Assembly: GCF_004010195.1 (NCBI RefSeq)
Contig: NC_057719.1
Span: 28,188,710-28,252,709, forward strand
Length of the DNA: 64,000 nucleotides
Direction of reading: 5' to 3'
From: Chiloscyllium plagiosum
Taxonomy: Eukaryota
Position 1 is the first letter of the stretch; the number at the start of each line of letters is the position of its first letter. Below, in pieces: positions 2,364 to 63,670 of the stretch. The translations under genes and the position numbers were made by a program. Below the pieces are notes generated by a model. That model saw nothing but the letters and a program-made list of their open reading frames with translations. It did not search any database and was not told the origin of the DNA.

Positions 2364-2570
2364 AGTCGAAAAGTGTGGCTCTAGAAAAACACAGCAGATC
2401 AGACAGCATCCGAGGAGCAGGAGAATCAATGTTTTGGGCAGAAGCCATTCTTGATGAAGGGCTTATGCCCAAAACATCAATTCTCCTGCTCCTCGGTTGC
2501 TGCCTGACCTGCTGTGCTTTTCCAGCACCACACATTTCGACTCTGATCTCCAGCATCCTCACTTTCTCCT
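2364..2570. mobile_element. Fold-back PLE terminal-repeat mini-element, family A
   Basis: 2364-2446 is the reverse complement of about 2460-2542. The sequence matches the end of the PLE ORF copies at 25034-25185 and 28440-28529. A decayed HHR (ttgatgaagggcttatgcccaaaacatc) lies at the centre. Confidence 0.85.
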
Positions 2571-3095: not shown

Positions 3096-4224
3096 AAAGG
3101 TTTGATTAATTCTAACTTGTTCAGGCCAGGATGGCCTGGGCGAGGGAGGATTAACTGATTAGCAGCAGTCGTTTACTCTAAATTTGTTTCATCAGCTCTA
3201 ACACCATTACTGAAGACTGTTAATTCAACATATGTGCATTACAGATCTTCAGATCTATTTGTTACACTGTTGTGTCTATCCCTTCTATGTACAGTATCTA
3301 TGTTACAAATAAAAGACTGTCAAGTTTGGTAGAATTCTTAATGGCTGTATTTATTTGCTGAAGATACGGCAAGCAAGGAAGTAATATTTAATAATAATTC
3401 CATTCCCTTGTTTAACAACAATGTTATGATGACAAATACTAATTATTAGTAATCTACAACTTTAAAATGATCACTCACCCATATGACACCAACTCTTTAA
3501 TGAGATAAATATTTAAATATCCACACCTTGCAGTAATCTCACAATTAAGATTTCTCTTTTAGGATTGAAAACTTATTCAAAAATGCAAACTGGTTAAACT
3601 AAACCAAAACCAATCTCAAAAAAATTCAGTGGTAATATCCTAGAAGTAAATGGCACAATGTAAAAGTTGGATTCACCATAAAGAGACAGGTCACAGCTTC
3701 AAAGCAGAAAATTAGAGAGTTGACTATTTTCAGCAAAAAAGGACCTTATATTCGTAACTTGTTCTGCTAATATTTCAGCTCAAAATGATCTTTTTGTTTA
3801 TTCCAGAGGCTGCACCTCCAAGGAGAGATCAAACAATGTTCTTTTTATCTTAATTAATGGCCCTGACATTGAAATCTTACTTAAAGTCAAGCAGCTTGTT
3901 GGCTTGACTGGCAAATATTTCATGGATATTAGGCAAAGGTTTGGAATTAAAAACTAATGTATTGCAAAAGCTTGATTGAAACAATCCTTGCAGCGTGTAG
4001 CTGTGTAAAATGGTCCATGTCTCCCTTTTCATTGTCTCTTAAATGTATCAGAGCAATTACTTTTTCATGAAATAAACCAATTGCAAGAGTGCAATTCACT
4101 TGTTCTCAAAGTTCATCTCACAGTGTCATGGGATGCTGAAAGGTATGGTCAGATCAGCAACATCATGTTTGTTGCCTATCAGTGCTCTTCAAAGTATCAA
4201 TCAAAACTTTCCTGCAGGGGAGGT

Positions 4225-4324: not shown

Positions 4325-5424
4325 ATAGGTGGACAACCCATCTTACAACTCTAACTGCCCCTACAATCATGGAGGGGAGGATAAATTGGCAGCAAAACTG
4401 CTGCTGATGCCAAGGTGGGTCCACCTGCCTGTTTTTCCCAACTGTGGGCAGACTATAAAACTCAGGCCTATGTCTGTCAACAGAAGGATACAGGTACATC
4501 AGTTTTAGGGAAATGTGTTATCATTGTAATTCCTGCCACAATTGTTGAATATTAAGCAATGGAAGGGTAATGTGAAAGCATTTCAGAAGGACTGGGTGGA
4601 CCACTTGATTGCTTCTCACAGACATTCATCCTGACCTTGGTCAATGGAGAAGCCTGTTCTCAGTCACACAGTAGATTGCAACAAAACCAATCTATTGAAA
4701 AGCCACACTGTTCAATTCATTTTTCCAGTATAATTTAAACAGCATGTCTAATGCTAGTAATTTCTTGGATTTTCTGAGAAGCTAACATATGAATTGTGTT
4801 ATAGATCTCTGGCTATTGGAGTAAATACATGAGTTGGAGGCAAGGTTCATCCGTCGTTTTTGTAAGCCTAACTATAACAATTTCAGGTCTGTTCTGGAAA
4901 ATAAACCTTAGTCTGGTTTGGATTATAGCTTTCCCTCACACAATTGTCCGTGGATTCAGCACTGCAGTCACTAAAACAATATGGTGACGTGAAAAGTGAG
5001 GCTGTATTCACTTTTGGTCAGGTCATACATTCCTAAAATTAAATTAATAGGCTGAATTGCTGCCCTGACCACTGAGAGGTAAACTCTCAAGTGAGGGCTA
5101 AATTGGATATCTCCAAAAGGATTGTGGAGGATAGCACTCTGTGAATAATTCATGGCCATTCACTAACGCAGCAACATGCCAACTTTAGTACCTTCCAGTT
5201 AATCGAATGATTGCTGCATACAGCTAACAGTCAATGCATTGTTCATTGGTTGCATGCATCAGCTGGGGACCCAACACTATAATGTGATAGAGCCAATGAA
5301 TGCTAGCCCACACTGCTTCCAGTTACCCTGCCAGAGTTATACAAGCAACAATAAGTCTAGGAGCCAACAGAGGATCATGCCACACACCAAAGCACTACAG
5401 ATGTGAGATATATGAAATGTGCAA

Positions 5425-7790: not shown

Positions 7791-8377
7791 GATGTTTAAT
7801 GTACTCACAGGAGCAGTTCCAAATCAATAAATGCAACTTGGTGTGACAAGCTACAGTGAAAATTGTACAATGTGCTTGGATGTCATGATTGAATAACTAG
7901 TAAGGTGTGCAAGCTGTGAGATTATATATTTGTACAATGTGTGAGGGTGAAGTGATACCGATAAACATTAGGCATGAGTATCGACTGACAGGAATTCTTG
8001 GTTGGTGAGTAATGTGGGCGTGTGGTCTAGGAACAGTTTGTCCTGCTGTAGATGGCCTTCTGTTCATTTTCCTCATCAGGCTATATTCCAAGTGGCAGTC
8101 TTACTAAGTATGATCATCTTTGCTTTGTTTTATAATCTTAAAGTCACCAAAATACTCTTCAGCACTTGTGCTCCCTATAAGCATTAGCAATTGAAATTCT
8201 AGAAAGCATCAGGTACTTGTAGAATCATAGCAGCAGCCAGAATAAGTCAACCAGCAACTAACCAGCAAGTGGTTGATAATCTCTTTAAATAATACTGTAA
8301 AGGGTAGGAGGGGTCCTTCCCATTGCTGAATGCAAGTTCGATTCTGTGACGGTTAGGACACATGTGAAGGTGCCATT

Positions 8378-8581: not shown

Positions 8582-9507
8582 TGTTAGAATAGGGTGTTGG
8601 TTAAAGTATTGAGCTGAAAAACGTCAGCACAGGCACCATATCAATGTGGCATGCTGTGTGACAATATGTTCAACATTGTCTTCATTATGGGGATGGTTAC
8701 TGTGGCATTAACCCCTCCCACCCTTTACAGTATTATTTAAAGAGATTATCAACCACTTGCTCAGAACATCTCTTTTACAGTGCCAATATCTCAGAAGTGA
8801 GGGGACAGAAGAGGTTGCAGTAAATATAACTGAGTCAGGTATAGACTGAATGTCCAACATTTCATCCCTACACCACATCTTTCGATGGAAAGCTAGCACT
8901 TCTCTGGAACACAAATCAGCAGGTTCACTGCTATAAGCAAACAATATCTAATTTTAATTTCGGTTCTAATAAGAAAAGCATTCCTCTTGGGGCAGCCCCC
9001 ACTCCCTTTATTCCTCATCAACCACCTGTAAATTAAGCCTCAGACTCAAGAATTCCCACCCTAAACCTTTCCAGTTGTCTGTTATTTAAAATGCTTCCTA
9101 AAAGTTACTCTTTTATCAAGCTTTCAGTCACCTACCCTAAAGTTATCTTCTTTTCCACTGTCAATTTTCATCTATGTTGCCAGATTAAAAGTGCTACATA
9201 AATGCAAGTTATTATTGTATGTGTAGTGGTTTATTTCAAAGTCATTTTGTTCCTTTGAAGTATGTAATAACAACACACCAACAATAACTAAGTAAAGCAT
9301 TGTTGGCATTTCTGTGGTTTCCTGATGTACAGGTATTCACCATGCAAACATCTCAAAGAACCCAGGGATTTACCAGTTAACTGAAAACTGATTGTTACAG
9401 ATTGGAAAAGCTTTTATCTCTTTTCCCCTTAGGCCTCTGAACAGGAAGGTTGTGGGTCATGTTGCCTCCGAGTTCCATGTAGCCAGCACATAAAAACTTT
9501 ACAGCAG

Positions 9508-9685
9508 CCAAAACCAGAAAGTACTGGAGAAACTCAATAGGTCTGACAGAGAGAAACAGTGACGAAGGGTCACTGCATTGGAAATATTAATTCCGTTTTT
9601 CTATTCAGAGACCTGCTGACGTTCTACAGTATTTCTGCTTTTCTTTCTGATTTCCAGCATTCACAGTTCTTTGCTTTTATTTTGA
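9508..9685. mobile_element. Old fold-back PLE terminal fragment, family C
   Basis: aaaaccagaaagtactggagaaactcaataggtctg is roughly the reverse complement of cagagacctgctgacgttctacagtatttctgcttttt. The centre holds a degenerate HHR-like gtgacgaagggtcac...ggaaatatt. Confidence 0.6.
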
Positions 9686-10793: not shown

Positions 10794-10974
10794 AAAAAAG
10801 TGTGGCGCTAGAAAAGCACAGGTCAGACAACAGCTCAGGAGCAGGAGAATCGATGAAGGGTTTATGCTCAAAACGTTGACTCTCCTGCTCCTCAGATGCT
10901 GCCTGATATGCTGTGCTTTCCCAGTGCCATACTTTTCGACTTTGATCTCCAGCGTCTGCAGTCCTCACTTTCTC
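10794..10974. mobile_element. Fold-back PLE mini-element, family A
   Basis: Inverted arms meet at ...ggagaatc|gatgaaggg.... The element is flanked by ctaccaatccatgcc (10779-10793) and ctaccgttccatgcc (10975-10989). Confidence 0.85.
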
Positions 10975-11110
10975 CTACCGTTCCATGCCCCCTAGTCACA
11001 GAGTGCTCTGCTAAGATAAATACGTACTTCTCATCCACTTTATCCAGGGCCCTCACAATTCTGTATATTTCAGTCAAATTTCCCCTCTGCCTCCTTTGCT
11101 CAAAGGACAA
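10975..11110 (-). mobile_element. CR1 ORF2 fragment, host of the preceding insertion
   Basis: ORF 10892..11110 contains RRQRGNLTEIYRIVRALDKVD...TRGH, a CR1 C-terminal motif. Confidence 0.7.
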
Positions 11111-27694: not shown

Positions 27695-28529
27695 GAGAAC
27701 AGGTTGAACAGTTCATTCACTTTACTAACACCTTCCACCCCAACCTCAAATTTACCTGGACCGTCTCAGACTACTCCCTCCCCTTCCTAGACCTCTCAAT
27801 TTCTATCTCGGGCGACCGATTCAACACAGACATTTACTATAAACCGACTGACTCCCACAGCTACCTAGATTCCACCTCCTCCCACCCTGCCCCCTGTAAA
27901 AACGCCATCCCATATTCCCAATTCCTCCGCCTCCGCTGCATCTGCTCCCAGGGGAACCAATTCCACTACTGAACAGCCCAAATGGTCTCCTTCTTCAAAG
28001 ACCGCAATTTCACCTCCGCTGTGGTCGACGATGCTCTACACCGCATCTCCTCCACTTCCCGCTCCTCCGTCCTTGAACCCCGCCCCTCCAATTGCCACCA
28101 GGACAGAGCCCCACTGGTCCTCACCTTCCACCCCACCAACCACCGGATACATCGCATCATCTTCCGTCATTTCCGCCACCTCCAAACAGACCCCACCACC
28201 ACCGATATATTTCCCTCTCCACCCCTATCAGCATTCAGGAGTGACCACTCCCCCCGCGACTCCCTCATCAGGTCCACACCCCCCACCAACTCAACCTTCA
28301 CTCCCGGCACCTTCCCCTGCAACCGCAAGAAGTGCAAAACGTGCGCCCACACCTCCCCCCCCCCCCCCCTCCCTNNNNNNNNNNNNNNNNNNNNNNNNNN
28401 NNNNNNNNNNNNNNNNNNNNNNNNCACTTGGCACACCAGCCTCATTCCTGAAGAAGGGCTTATGCCCAAAACATCGATTCTCCTGCTCCTCGAATGCTGC
28501 CTGGCCTGCTGCGTTTTTCCAGCACCACA
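27695..28529 (+). mobile_element. Penelope-like retroelement fragment (RT thumb, Cys-rich linker, terminal repeat)
   Basis: ORF 27679..27972 (FHPNLKFTW...LPFLDL...YYKPTDSHSYL) and ORF 27982..28608 (PLVLTFHP, PCNRKKCKTC). After a 50-N gap at 28375-28424 comes the terminal repeat with a decayed HHR, cctgaagaagggcttatgcccaaaacatc. Confidence 0.9.
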
Positions 28530-29250
28530 GTATTTATTGCTAATCCCTATTCCTCCTCCTGAAAGTGGTAGCTGGTTTTCTCTTGAACAGCTGAAGTCCA
28601 TGTGGTGAAGGTAATCCTAAAATCCTGTTGAGAGGTTCAGGATTATGATCCCGTGACAAAGGAGGAAGAGGGACACATGCCTAAGCTGGAATTTAGTAAC
28701 TGTTCGAGTAGGTGTCAGAACAGCTTAGATAGAGGTATAGATAGGTCTGGAGCAAAAGGTTTCTGTATTATAGCCAGGATGCTGTTGGACCTTTGCAGCC
28801 TAAGTCCAGTGTACTCAGCTGCTGTTTGATACCATGTGGAGTGAACATAATTGGCTAAAGTCAGGAATCCATGATGGCACCAAGATCAGAAGATGACTGA
28901 AGAATCATCCACTCAGCACTCTTGGTTGACGATAGTAGCAATTCTACACTACCATGAGGATATTCACCAAACCTCCTCCAAACATTCGTTATTCATTTGA
29001 CCATCAACATTTGGACTGCAGGTGGAGTTTTGAACCAATCATTGTACATTGTGGAATTGCCCTCAGTCTACATCAGGTCATTTGCACTCTTTACTGTTCA
29101 CATTGTATGTTGTAACTTCACCAGTTTAGCACTTCATTGTCAGGTAAGCCTGGTGTTGTCCTGGCATGTTCTTCTACAGCAACCAAAACAATTTGGTAAT
29201 GTGCCAGTGTTGGAGGAATGAGCGATGTACCAGACCATGAACCTAAATTT
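28530..29250 (-). mobile_element. Deleted, decayed copy of the LINE family at 42274-45207
   Basis: Segments resemble 42320-42430 (caggattatgatcccgtgac) and 43580-44130 (atcatccactcagcact). Confidence 0.55.
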
Positions 29251-32700: not shown

Positions 32701-33064
32701 TTATCTCCAACATATTAGAATACAGAGGACTCCAAGTTTCATATGTAACGCAGGTACATGCCAATTGAGAAAATAAAACAGAAAAAATGTCACTCGTGAC
32801 ATTATCAGGAAAGTCCCTCAAGTATCTAGGCAAAAGTGAGGACTGCAGATGCTACAAACCAGATTTTAGATCAGAGTGGTGCTTATCTCCAACATATTAG
32901 AATACAGAGGACTCCAAGTTTCATATGTAACGCAGGTACATGCCAATTGAGAAAATAAAACAGAAAAAATGTCACTTGTGACATTATCAGGAAAGTCCCT
33001 CAAGTATCTAGGCAAAAGTGAGGACTGCAGATGCTGCAAACCAGAGTTTAGATCAGAGTGGTGC
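32701..33064. repeat. Tandem duplication, 2 x 182 bp
   Basis: 32701-32882 and 32883-33064 are identical except for three substitutions found by eye. Confidence 0.95.
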
Positions 33065-33206
33065 TGGAAAAGCACAGCAGGCAGGCAGCAACGTACTGTT
33101 TGTTACCTTCTCCCCAGTTCCACCCCTGCCATTTATCTCTCCACCCTGGAGGCTTCCTGCTCTATTCCTGATGAGGGGCTTTTGCCCGAAACGTCGATTT
33201 TCCTGC
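33010..33206. mobile_element. Short PLE insertion with inverted end, family A
   Basis: 33010-33086 is the terminal repeat in minus orientation. About 33090-33206 is the 3' UTR and HHR in plus orientation. Flanks are ccctcaagtatct (32997-33009) and ccctccagtatct (33207-33219). Confidence 0.85.
33164..33199 (+). ncRNA. Minimal hammerhead ribozyme motif, apparently intact
   Basis: AUUC-CUGAUGA(33168-33174)-G-GGGC-UUUU-GCCC-GAAAC-GUC(33193-33195)-GAUU. Confidence 0.8.
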
Positions 33207-33719
33207 CCCTCCAGTATCTGATAGATTGCATCCAAAACCATTCAGTCCACTACCTGCCCAGCATGTCAACTCTGTCTTTGCTATTTATATTGCCTTCTGA
33301 ATGCCCCCAATATTTCAAATGTTAAAATTTCTCAATAATTTTTCAACATTCTTTCACAAGGTTCAGTTAGCAATATCTCTATCTCCTCATGCCCTACAAA
33401 GTCTCCTGACTGAAATCTTTGTCCTTGTGATTCTGGTTTCTTCTGCATCTACCTGTTTTTACCATACCGTTTGCAGCTTTACATACAGCAAAACACCAAG
33501 CAGTCAGTCTTTCTCCTGAAACACATCTGCTTCTCCATTTCTCTGCCCCTGACGGACACAGTGTCCAGTCAGGGTGTCTTTCATCCAGTCTTACACTGTC
33601 AGCTGGAGGAATACCCCAAAGATTTAACTTTGGTCATTTTTTATTTTTCGTTTAAATGCTATCCCTTAGTGTCACTATTTGCAGTCTTGAGGTCAGACTC
33701 TACGTAAGAGTCGCATTGA

Positions 33720-55018: not shown

Positions 55019-56979
55019 ATCACGTCACATCAGTATCTGAGAAGTGGCAAATGATACAGACCATTCCGCATTCAATAGTGAACATACCCACTTCTGAAGA
55101 AATGTCATAAAATTATGATCATTTTAAATCAAACCATGATTGCAGGTCAAGGAAATTAGTTAGAAATGGTGCAATGGAATGTTAGGAAGGCACCTCTCAG
55201 GGAATAGTACCACATGTTACAACACAAAGCAAAGCCAATCAGTGAGAGATAGGACTGGAACTTGGAACAACGAAGTGTAATCTGATGGAAACAACCAATA
55301 TCTGAAGGAACTCGACTGGGATAAACTGAGAGGTTGTTACCTCTCTGCCTTGGGAGATCTACAGCATTGTGTGGATTCATAGTGAGCAAGGACAGCACTC
55401 AGATTCCATAATGCCACCCTGAATTGCTGCTGGAGGCAGTCAAAGGCAAACTTTTCTCTAATGATGGAACAAAAAAAAACAAACCCTTGCTGCTGTCAGA
55501 TGGTTGAAGAGGTGAACCAGAATATTATGTCCTGGTTTGGAATACTGTAAAAGTAGCTTCATGATTTAACCAGGTCAGGAAAAGTTTCCACATTTGCTGA
55601 TTCATCGACGTTCTGTGGTGTAAGCCCCAAGCCCCTTGCACACTTTTCCCAAGCATTCTCAATTGCATCACCCCTCACAGCCATTTAATATACACTATGC
55701 CCTTCACATATCCATTCCCCTTCACGGTCACTCACATTTACACTTAAACTTGTCTAGTTGTCATATTCATTAATTGTACTTTAGGTGATTGTGTAACTTA
55801 CAGTTCTTGCCTCCCCCTCCGTCTTGCAGTGGAGAGCAAATACAAAGGAGAGGTTTCCATAAATTCTACAGCTCACAGATACAAAGGAAGAGCTCACAGA
55901 GAATAAACAACACGTTGATGTGCCTCCCAATCAGTGATGGAGATTGTAGGAACATCCAAGTAATTGCATTAATAATATCCTTGATAGGCACACCGGATTT
56001 ATTCTATCACTGACTGAATGATGAAAAGCCGAGTAACGTCAAGATTGTTACTTTTCTACAGCAAATTTGTATCTTCTTTTATCTGCTAGGAACATAGAGC
56101 AAGTAGAGCAAAGAGTGTGCAGACATGTCAATAGTAATTGCTCAAAAGGCCTCATTTCTACAGAGGGTGCACAATCACAGAACCTCCAGCCTTGCACTAG
56201 CATAGATGCTTCCACTTCTGTTGCTCCAGTTAGACTGTTTTTTGGGTTTTCACTTGCTGGTTTGCAATTCAGAAGTGAGCAAGGGTGCATACTGCTATCA
56301 GAATCTGTAAACCTCCACAAAAGAAACACAATCCAGAAAGTAGATAATAGAGTAGAATAGGAACTTTATGGGGTATAAATAAAGGCAATCTGCCCACTTG
56401 CCACTCACTCCAACAAGCTGCATTCACTTTCAAACACTCATGGTTGCTTCCACAAATTTAGCAAGCTTCACCAAACTTTCAAATGCTTGGTTCCTGCCCA
56501 ATAAAATTAATTGAGTGGTTAGTCTGCAACCAAGACAAATCCAACTTACAGATTTGATCTCACCTGAAGCATTAATAAATTCCCAATGTCATTAAACACA
56601 ACCAATGCCAAACTTTTCAGGTTGGGCAAACTGGCAAACAACAGAAGAGACAGATGTAAGAGAGCTCCAAACATAATAAAGACATGGCTTCCTGTTGGCT
56701 AAGTAATGCAACAGGACAGGTTGAAGTTGAGGGAGGCCAACTTGTGCTGAAGATGGAGGAGCAGTTTCATGGGGAGGGTGGAGATGGAGGTTTAGTGAGT
56801 ATGGTATGAATTGAGCTCACAGGGTGATTGCAAACACAGATTGGGTGGAGAGGTGAAAAGAATTCAGTGATTGTGGGCAGCAATTGTTCAGTGCTCAGGA
56901 TGGGAAGCTGATTAACTTGGGGAGATGGCACAAATTGCTAATTCATCTCTTGACCCACAAGCAATGCTAGAAAACCATG

Positions 56980-57144
56980 ATGTGGAGGAGCCGGTGTTGG
57001 ACTGGGGTGGACAAAGTTAAAAATCATACAACACCAGATTATAGCCCTCAGGTTTATTTTGATGCACTGGCTTTCCGAAAAGCTGGTGCTTCCAAATAAC
57101 CCTGTTGGATTATAACCTGGTGTGTGATTTTTAAACTTTGCCTG
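56980..57144. mobile_element. Fold-back mini-element, family B
   Basis: 57012-57075 is the reverse complement of about 57077-57140. Flanks are agaaaaccatg (56969-56979) and agaaaatcatg (57145-57155). Confidence 0.85.
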
Positions 57145-63259: not shown

Positions 63260-63670
63260 GTATCACTCACCTTGGAGCAGAAAAGCAATTAATTCAAACA
63301 CATTGCAGTATCTGGAGTACATAATGTAGGCTGATAATTGAGTGCAGTACCAAAGGAATGCTGCAATGTCAATGTTCAGGAGAAAGTGAGGGCTCCAGAT
63401 GCTGGAGAGTCAGAGTCGAAAAGTATGCGCTGGAAAAAGCACAATAGATCAGGCAGCATCCAAGGAACAGGAGAGATGAAGGGCTGATGCCCAAAATGTC
63501 GACTCTCCTACTCCTTGAATACTGCCTGGCTCGCTGTTGTTTTTCCACGCGATAGGTTTTGACTCTGCAATGTCAATGGTGTCACACTTAAGTGAAATCT
63601 TAAATCAAGACCTTCTCTGTCCTCTTAGGAGTGTAAAAAAAAATCAAATAGTAACTTTTCAACAAGAGCA
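63260..63670 (+). mobile_element. Deu-domain SINE 5' part interrupted by a PLE fold-back
   Basis: taggctgataattgagtgcagtacc...ctgcaatgtcaatg[insert]gtgtc...ttaaatcaagacc...ttttcaacaagagca resembles 9785-9935. Confidence 0.55.
63375..63564. mobile_element. Fold-back PLE mini-element, family A
   Basis: Inverted arms meet at ggaga|gatgaagggctgatgccc. An exact 14-bp direct repeat ctgcaatgtcaatg lies at 63361-63374 and 63565-63578. Confidence 0.88.

Follow-up and report, generated by a model that had tools for sequence, protein, structure and literature searches.

The insertion at positions 63361-63578 of the window (the whole 64,000-nucleotide stretch of Chiloscyllium plagiosum DNA analysed here) is made up of two ends of a Penelope-like element (PLE) placed head to head inside an exact 14-bp target-site duplication (TSD), one of them with a tail of about 36 nucleotides and the other without. 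We consider it probable, at roughly 0.6, that such a hairpin represents two PLE ends formed in a single event: both strands of the nicked target would prime on uncut RNA, to be copied at most up to its capped start. The layout is already published; the insertions here differ from the published ones in that most lack an element body, the arms share a single sharp inner limit and an extra G is found at that limit. How PLEs integrate, why inverted termini form and what hammerheads do are the questions on which these hairpins bear.

The hairpins of the window and their parent element

The features of the insertion and the other hairpins of the window are collected in Table 1, with element coordinates relative to hammerhead residue C17 (position 0), the first base past the predicted cut being +1. 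Core residue C3 is located at -27 in family A, -28 in family B and -29 in family C, using a core numbering (C17, C3, U4) that we assume to hold for these pLTRs. The original prediction of opposed PLE termini between exact 14-bp repeats, joined within the hammerhead, is borne out by the repeat and by a split alignment of the arms. The first three nucleotides of the TSD are identical to the next bases of the element, and the GAAA core of the hammerhead remnant, read against the family core, is AAAA. The same architecture had been proposed at 2364, 9508, 10794 and 56980, across three terminal-repeat families; all four are hairpins, and families A, B and C are confirmed. Flanking TSDs, proposed for the hairpins generally, are present at 63361, 10796 and 56977, while that at 2364 is not convincing and 9510 has none. 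The arm reaching -105 in the hairpin at 33010-33210 means that not all inversions lie within about 20 nucleotides of the core, as had been supposed.

Table 1. Coordinates of the 63361 insertion and of the other hairpins in the window
Feature	Position	Strand	Details
TSD, left copy	63361..63374	.	14 bp, exact repeat
Spacer between TSD and tail end	63375..63377	.	3 nt; filler or diverged element end
Tailed arm, PLE family A pLTR	63378..63474	-	+99 to +4 relative to C17; tail about 63378-63414; split alignment
Head-to-head junction	63474..63475	.	insert-free, single best split; spanned by a contig of 55 nt from run X15
Minimal type-I hammerhead remnant	63475..63500	+	-25 to C17 at 63500; C3/U4 missing, GAAA core altered; predicted inactive
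Tail-less arm	63475..63567	+	-25 to about +64/67; final 3 nt overlap TSD
TSD, right copy	63565..63578	.	14 bp
Family A hairpin	2364..2570		junction 2445/2446; inner ends -17/-32; TSD not convincing
Family C hairpin	9510..9682		junction 9559/9560; inner ends +5/-28; left arm weak; TSD absent
Family A hairpin	10796..10976		junction 10851/10852; inner ends +1/-25; 15-bp TSD with 2 mismatches
Family A hairpin, absent from the original prediction	33010..33210		inner ends +18/-105; 13-bp TSD with 1 mismatch
Family B hairpin	56977..57140		junction 57078/57079; inner ends -10/-6; 11-bp TSD with 1 mismatch

Contigs from other runs cover the 63361 locus. The 55-nt contig extends 25 and 30 letters to either side of its junction (the bridging threshold being 31 letters), contigs of three other runs continue from the right arm into its flank, and one does so on the left. 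Among the contig joins listed for these runs, none is an empty-site join at this locus.

Several other repeats are present in the window. A 51-bp inverted repeat (8264-8314 and 8711-8761, 98% complementary and 396 nucleotides apart) is probably a MITE or a DNA-transposon derivative of young age and without relation to the PLE ends. Older inverted repeats at 1910-2005 and 3188-3283, about 1.3 kb apart and 78% alike, enclose the hairpin at 2364 and possibly belong to a DNA transposon that received it. A 183-bp tandem duplication (32701-33065, 98% alike) contains family A tail pieces and overlaps the hairpin at 33010, and a family A copy at about 28310-28530 consists of a cysteine-linker coding piece, an N gap and then a pLTR end.

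For family A, the family examined in this respect, a pLTR was found linked to a single open reading frame encoding RT followed by a GIY-YIG endonuclease. This frame, in locus L205, is 893 amino acids long, matches RVT_1 with an E-value of 6e-08 and GIY-YIG with one of 3.5e-04, the latter slightly below the Pfam cut-off, and is followed by the pLTR. A C-X4-C-X2-C linker, present in L205 and L156, fits the CX2-5CxxC motif described for endonuclease-bearing (EN+) PLEs (PMC8557442), as found in the Neptune type; the linker motif also occurs in Nematis. Judged from its sequence, the parent of family A is an endonuclease-bearing PLE, assigned to the Neptune type by its cysteine linker. The L205 copy is long and truncated at its 5' end, where, at oriented positions 4460-4900, a unit of about 120 bp occurs four times in tandem and the frame stays open throughout.

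Inspected by eye, the pLTRs of all three families contain a hammerhead core, a stem II and a palindromic stem III, while an Rfam scan gave no hammerhead match, only sub-threshold miRNA and snoRNA matches. Together, the family A frame and the hammerhead cores uphold the assignment of the hairpin termini to PLEs with minimal hammerheads in their terminal repeats. The sampled hairpins also have the inverted 5' pLTR, the one-sided 30-40-bp tail and the TSD of EN+ PLEs. In copies that carry a coding region, the pLTR continues beyond +98 into the frame, with an ATG near +135 (by eye). Such ORF-linked copies account for 14 of 30 loci; six of the 14 have their start between -35 and -21, an inverted tail-less arm being present in two of the six. 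The mini-hairpin is therefore the shortest form of the insertion that the element ordinarily makes.

To place the window in its genome, 140 evenly spaced 10-kb stretches were added to it, giving a sample of 1,464,000 bases, 44,172 of them N. This sample contains 360 PLE-end elements: 119 simple head-to-head pairs (75 of family A, 24 of B and 20 of C), 219 solos and 22 tandem or complex elements; simple tail-to-tail pairs are absent from the 360. Extrapolation gives genome totals of about 180,000 (A), 58,000 (B) and 48,000 (C) hairpins, about 280,000 overall. Clear TSDs (score of at least 9), mostly 13-17 bp long, flank 39/75 hairpins of family A, 7/24 of B and 1/20 of C, compared with 1/150 random positions; for solos the numbers are 14/105, 7/32 and 4/45. 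Single-ended events may lose target bases in the family A solos (L031-L170). Loss of target bases is attributed to truncated L1 insertions. A tail is present on exactly one arm in 59/67 family A, 24/24 family B and 14/16 family C hairpins; these counts, and those of junctions, omit hairpins with an arm score below 40 or near the end of a stretch (8 of A, 0 of B and 4 of C). The outer end is about 36 nucleotides longer on one arm in 97 of 107 hairpins. With arms so unequal at their outer ends, the hairpins have no symmetric, MITE-like shape with matching terminal inverted repeats, which corrects the original description of them as MITE-looking. A second, smaller sample of 11 hairpins came from 250,800 bases flanking search loci.

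The inner limit of the arms

When breakpoints are plotted relative to C17, a check that the original prediction had proposed, they are non-uniform and concentrated near the hammerhead. The furthest-5' arm end is located between -40 and -21 in 65 of 91 hairpins of families A and B, and in 8 of 11 in the second sample; a uniform spread would place about 4 of 102 longer-arm ends there. Counting all 204 arms, 103 end between -37 and -21, 23 between +1 and +9, and 18 upstream of -40. The solos (n = 158) include 64 that start between -37 and -21 and 68 that start upstream of -40.

The boundary base is an initiator-like A, at -31 in subfamilies A1-A3 and at -33 in family C; in family B it is an A at -36 that lacks a strict initiator match. 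About 30 nucleotides above it, at -62 to -68, a TATA or TATA-like word is present in each of the three families, which are distinct in sequence; in family A the word is non-canonical. The arrangement of a capped Pol II start, TATA some 30 nucleotides 5' of an initiator A, is thus found as a motif match. On these motifs, the sharp limit of the arms is likely the start of a capped PLE mRNA, just upstream of the hammerhead. Since the arms run about 30 nucleotides beyond the cut site, most templates would have been copied through an uncut hammerhead. RNA reads, which do not come from a 5'-end library, have loose ends listed at -31 and +98/+99, and neither starts nor ends of molecules are listed; the reads over PLE ends most likely represent host transcripts containing copies.

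Transcription from the pLTR has been described (PMC6765202), and for Adineta Pen2a a pLTR with a TATA and an initiator has been noted (PMC3846280, PMC8557442, PMC2377424). Penelope of D. virilis has a TATA-less promoter and an intron preceding the hammerhead (PMC2377424, PMC4209133), so the TATA/initiator layout is not universal among PLEs. A splice-acceptor boundary, as in D. virilis, was considered and rejected for families A and B, which have no AG just 5' of the boundary; family C has an AG at -33/-32, yet many of its copies begin at the A of this dinucleotide. The family A sequence from -37 to -18 is nearly palindromic across the start of the core. It renders some junction calls ambiguous, and could fold as a stem blocking the core in RNAs that start further upstream.

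The copies often carry an untemplated G at their 5' junction. Genome-wide, in young family A copies that begin at A(-31) and follow an A or a T, the preceding base is G in 2,030 cases and A in 554, where the template has C. This ratio of 3.7 lies above a genomic expectation of 0.94:1 and also above one of 2.1:1 if the preceding base always came from the opposite, antisense arm. By-eye counts on the first 100 rows listed for each family point the same way, the expected share of G being 26%. In family A, G precedes A(-31) in 64/100 rows, and in flank-type contexts in 22/36, compared with 4/29 one base upstream (Fisher p 1e-4). Family B has G in 72/100 rows and in 15/26 flank-type contexts; in family C it is found in 34/84, after 16 upstream-templated rows were set aside, a modest excess. 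Many of the G neighbours of the boundary can also be accounted for by the opposite arm. A genomic subfamily with G at -32 was rejected as the source, there being no recurring upstream-templated context among 100 rows listed. An extra G at full-length L1-driven insertions has been read as the mRNA cap (PMC11702581), and the G seen here is likely also the mark of a reverse-transcribed cap, as the base ratios suggest. Alternatively, it could have been added independently of a cap, as might happen wherever an RNA has a sharp end; on both accounts, the boundary base is where the RT ran off its RNA. Several hairpins are perfect palindromes in which both arms reach the start base and are joined directly or by one or two added bases (for example G000:C1:18547209-18547254).

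Origin and joining of the two arms

The two arms of one hairpin are 90% alike, compared with 83% between hairpins, and at eight non-CpG diagnostic sites their alleles disagree in 9 of 269 pair-sites, where about 106 would be expected; as they share subfamily alleles, both arms come from one source or one event. Microhomology between TSD and element averages 2.0 nucleotides at the tail end and 1.5 at the tail-less end (n = 24 each, of 36 hairpins listed), against a rough null of about 0.74. At the inner junctions, 0-4 nucleotides of microhomology or short inserts are found, with inserted bases in 30 of 67 family A junctions. Added together, the inner-end positions of a hairpin give widely scattered sums that are not pinned to the stem axis. 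The tail-less arm reaches further 5' in 37 hairpins of family A and 14 of family B (51/83), and the tailed arm in 20 and 8 (28/83).

These data bear on several ways in which a hairpin might form. Snap-back of a single cDNA, which would leave the RNA start, fold on itself or on the hammerhead stems and copy the second arm, accounts for the alleles common to both arms and for microhomology hot spots in the stems and the core palindrome; by eye, short-arm ends near +4 to +6 fit stem I. We regard it as unlikely, however: in 37/59 family A and 14/24 family B hairpins the 5'-shorter arm is the one that bears the tail, and folding back would give no tail to a cDNA that started at +62, so that two primings are needed. 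With the tail-less arm shorter in 28 of the 83, simple snap-back fails unless a second template is used, and it also sits poorly with the priming-like microhomology at both outer ends, the spread of inner-end sums and the inserted bases. The idea that the self-complementary stems of the hammerhead drive the turn survives as junction hot spots of 1-4 nucleotides of microhomology, while the architecture is not set by them. The same head-to-head shape would result if an antisense transcript primed itself at a palindrome, as Arkhipova (2013) proposed when invoking antisense templates for the inverted PLE termini of rotifers (PMC3846280); the near-palindromic core region and the RNA reads on both strands are in line with this, but host transcripts in which copies are embedded should give such reads, the sharp boundary fits a sense-strand TATA and initiator together with a sense-strand extra G, and solos without any inverted arm share it, all of which makes this origin distinctly improbable. 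Cleavage by the hammerhead, creating an RNA end at which the RT switches or folds back, was the turn originally favoured. In the first sample, 22 arm ends fall in +1 to +9, an interval fixed before the second sample was counted, compared with 29 in the 37 positions flanking it (scan-corrected p 0.003); in four hairpins neither arm ends outside this interval, and the tailed arm of the 63361 hairpin stops at +4. The excess is absent from the small second sample of 11 hairpins (1 vs 6), from the solos (4 vs 11) and from the first 100, in genome order, of 2,585 exact hairpins with a partner arm that reaches -31: their short arm ends in +1 to +9 in 32 cases by eye, with 29 expected (p 0.29). Most arms pass the cut by about 30 nucleotides and stop at the initiator-like A, 103 of 204 ending in -37 to -21 as against 23 in +1 to +9; this end point is common to solo and ORF-linked copies, and cleavage was unnecessary in vitro (PMC11167929). 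A turn dictated by the cut end is accordingly very unlikely. The first-sample excess and the arm ending at +4 leave some templates that may have been cut, and hammerhead cleavage may supply a minority of templates, without setting the architecture. The function of hammerheads in PLEs was termed unclear in PMC8557442.

Had the hairpins been non-autonomous masters, copied as units in the manner of retrozymes or MITEs, families of near-identical hairpins with shared inner structure and linked changes would be expected. In favour of masters, 21 of the 30 top matches to one young hairpin have its junction, 16 of the 30 share one arm-specific change, and the hammerhead core is intact in 40 of 99 hairpins. 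The arm-specific change, however, is a transition at a CpG that the query itself carries, and was therefore selected for by the search, and the hairpins sharing the junction belong to three or more subfamily backgrounds, both of their arms being altered together. The same junction on differing backgrounds speaks against master hairpins and for a hot spot of joining. For the 63361 hairpin, the 29 best relatives are 78-82% alike and have many different junctions, and tandem hairpin arrays are absent save for one adjacent pair, so that propagation as a retrozyme-like class, a possibility raised originally, appears highly improbable. Two observations leave room for occasional copying of hairpins: the loci G000:C1:51526667 and C1:62632567, 11 Mb apart, have an identical internally deleted junction and are candidates for a hairpin copied as a unit, and the adjacent hairpins L007 and L008 (G000:C31:24015825-24016185), 98.9% alike, represent an entire hairpin duplicated locally in tandem. 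It is scarcely credible that the hairpins are long inverted PLE pairs later shortened by deletion, or collapsed in assembly, two outcomes that would have undone the original prediction. The 18 arms of 204 that are long, ending upstream of -40, and the N gaps that frequently adjoin PLE copies are what such a history might leave; deletion, however, would not stop at one base with an extra G, young hairpins that are 95-97% alike are already short, and the independent contigs support the junction and flanks at 63361.

Under the preferred reading of two primings in one event, the PLE mRNA would start at the initiator-like A, 4-8 nucleotides 5' of the hammerhead core (at -31, -36 and -33 in families A, B and C, respectively), and span the hammerhead, both sites of RT initiation (about +62 and about +98), the frame (ATG at about +135) and a second pLTR. 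The copies do start sharply at that A, often with an untemplated G. The endonuclease would nick both target strands 13-17 bp apart, for which another PLE offers in-vitro support; one 3' end would prime at +98 and give the tailed arm, the other at about +62 and give the tail-less arm. If priming took place in the 5'-end copy of the mRNA, only 90-130 nucleotides would be copied before the RT left the cap, and the two same-sense cDNA ends would be trimmed and joined head to head, through short microhomology or the addition of a few bases, while the stems of the hammerhead would only bias where the join falls. Copies that are long and truncated at the 5' end, but bear this same inverted arm, would result from priming in the 3' pLTR. 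The hairpins would then be dead-end products and not a self-propagating class, and the suggestion that they are a stereotyped by-product of PLE integration is supported. The scarcity of clear TSDs in family A solos is left unexplained by two-strand priming.

More generally, the chances are about even that PLE integration is a concerted two-strand reaction, carried out by a paired RT-endonuclease from two fixed sites on capped, uncut RNA; with RT start sites 90-130 nucleotides from the start of transcription, the tiny hairpin would be its commonest product. If this is true, the roughly 280,000 hairpins would be an in-vivo record that places the PLE promoter at single-base resolution, one mechanism would account for both the tail and the inverted pLTR, and the hammerhead would mostly leave the copied RNA uncut. 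This large natural data set leads to base-level predictions: a capped start 4-8 nucleotides before the core, uncut templates and two-strand, two-site priming. For annotation, the hairpins resemble MITEs or microRNA hairpins, as in the weak Rfam miRNA matches, but are by-products of PLEs.

Comparison with known systems

The possibility that the hairpins were undescribed, which the original prediction left standing, has to be narrowed, as the layout of an inverted pLTR with a one-sided tail is in print. Neither two-strand priming as the origin of PLE inversions nor a cap mark in PLEs was found in the searched literature. EN+ PLEs with an inverted pLTR, a one-sided tail and a TSD, as seen here, have been reported (PMC3846280, PMC8557442, PMC2377424, PMC8969392), and in the first three of these accounts the inverted 5' pLTR is 5'-truncated, the tail is 30-40 bp long and the pLTR contains a hammerhead, again as in the hairpins. 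Compared with the insertions described there, most of those in our sample have no frame or body, and the arms have one sharp inner limit with an extra G.

The closest biochemical counterpart is Poseidon of Anolis carolinensis (PMC11167929), a predicted dimer that uses uncut RNA and cleaves and extends both target strands, as is proposed here. Two internal RT starts, about 60-100 nucleotides 3' of the hammerhead, bound its tail, which is the same arrangement as in the hairpins. The Poseidon frame begins in the hammerhead, whereas here the frame has its start near +135 and encodes a cysteine linker of the Neptune type; inverted arms and the start of transcription are not addressed in the parts of that work concerned. 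In L1 twin priming (PMC11702581), the second strand primes internally and gives an inverted segment and a discrete TSD, and full-length copies gain a 5' G. The segments of L1 twin priming are different parts of one RNA, while the two arms of a hairpin are copies of one and the same stretch, each from a fixed start of its own, which requires two templates or the sequential use of one.

Non-LTR retrozymes (bioRxiv 10.64898/2026.07.22.740005) are, like the hairpins, non-coding, derived from PLE pLTRs and equipped with type-I hammerheads. They are arranged as head-to-tail tandem units with intact ribozymes, while the hairpins are head to head and single, their core is intact in 40 of 99 and not in 59, and that of the 63361 hairpin appears dead. 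Finally, in Schistosoma mansoni dual minimal hammerheads lie on opposite strands, about 100-700 bp apart, and are tied to truncated PLEs (PMC4209133); in the relevant part of that article they are mentioned in one sentence without analysis of junctions or TSDs, and in the hairpins described here the two cores abut or overlap.
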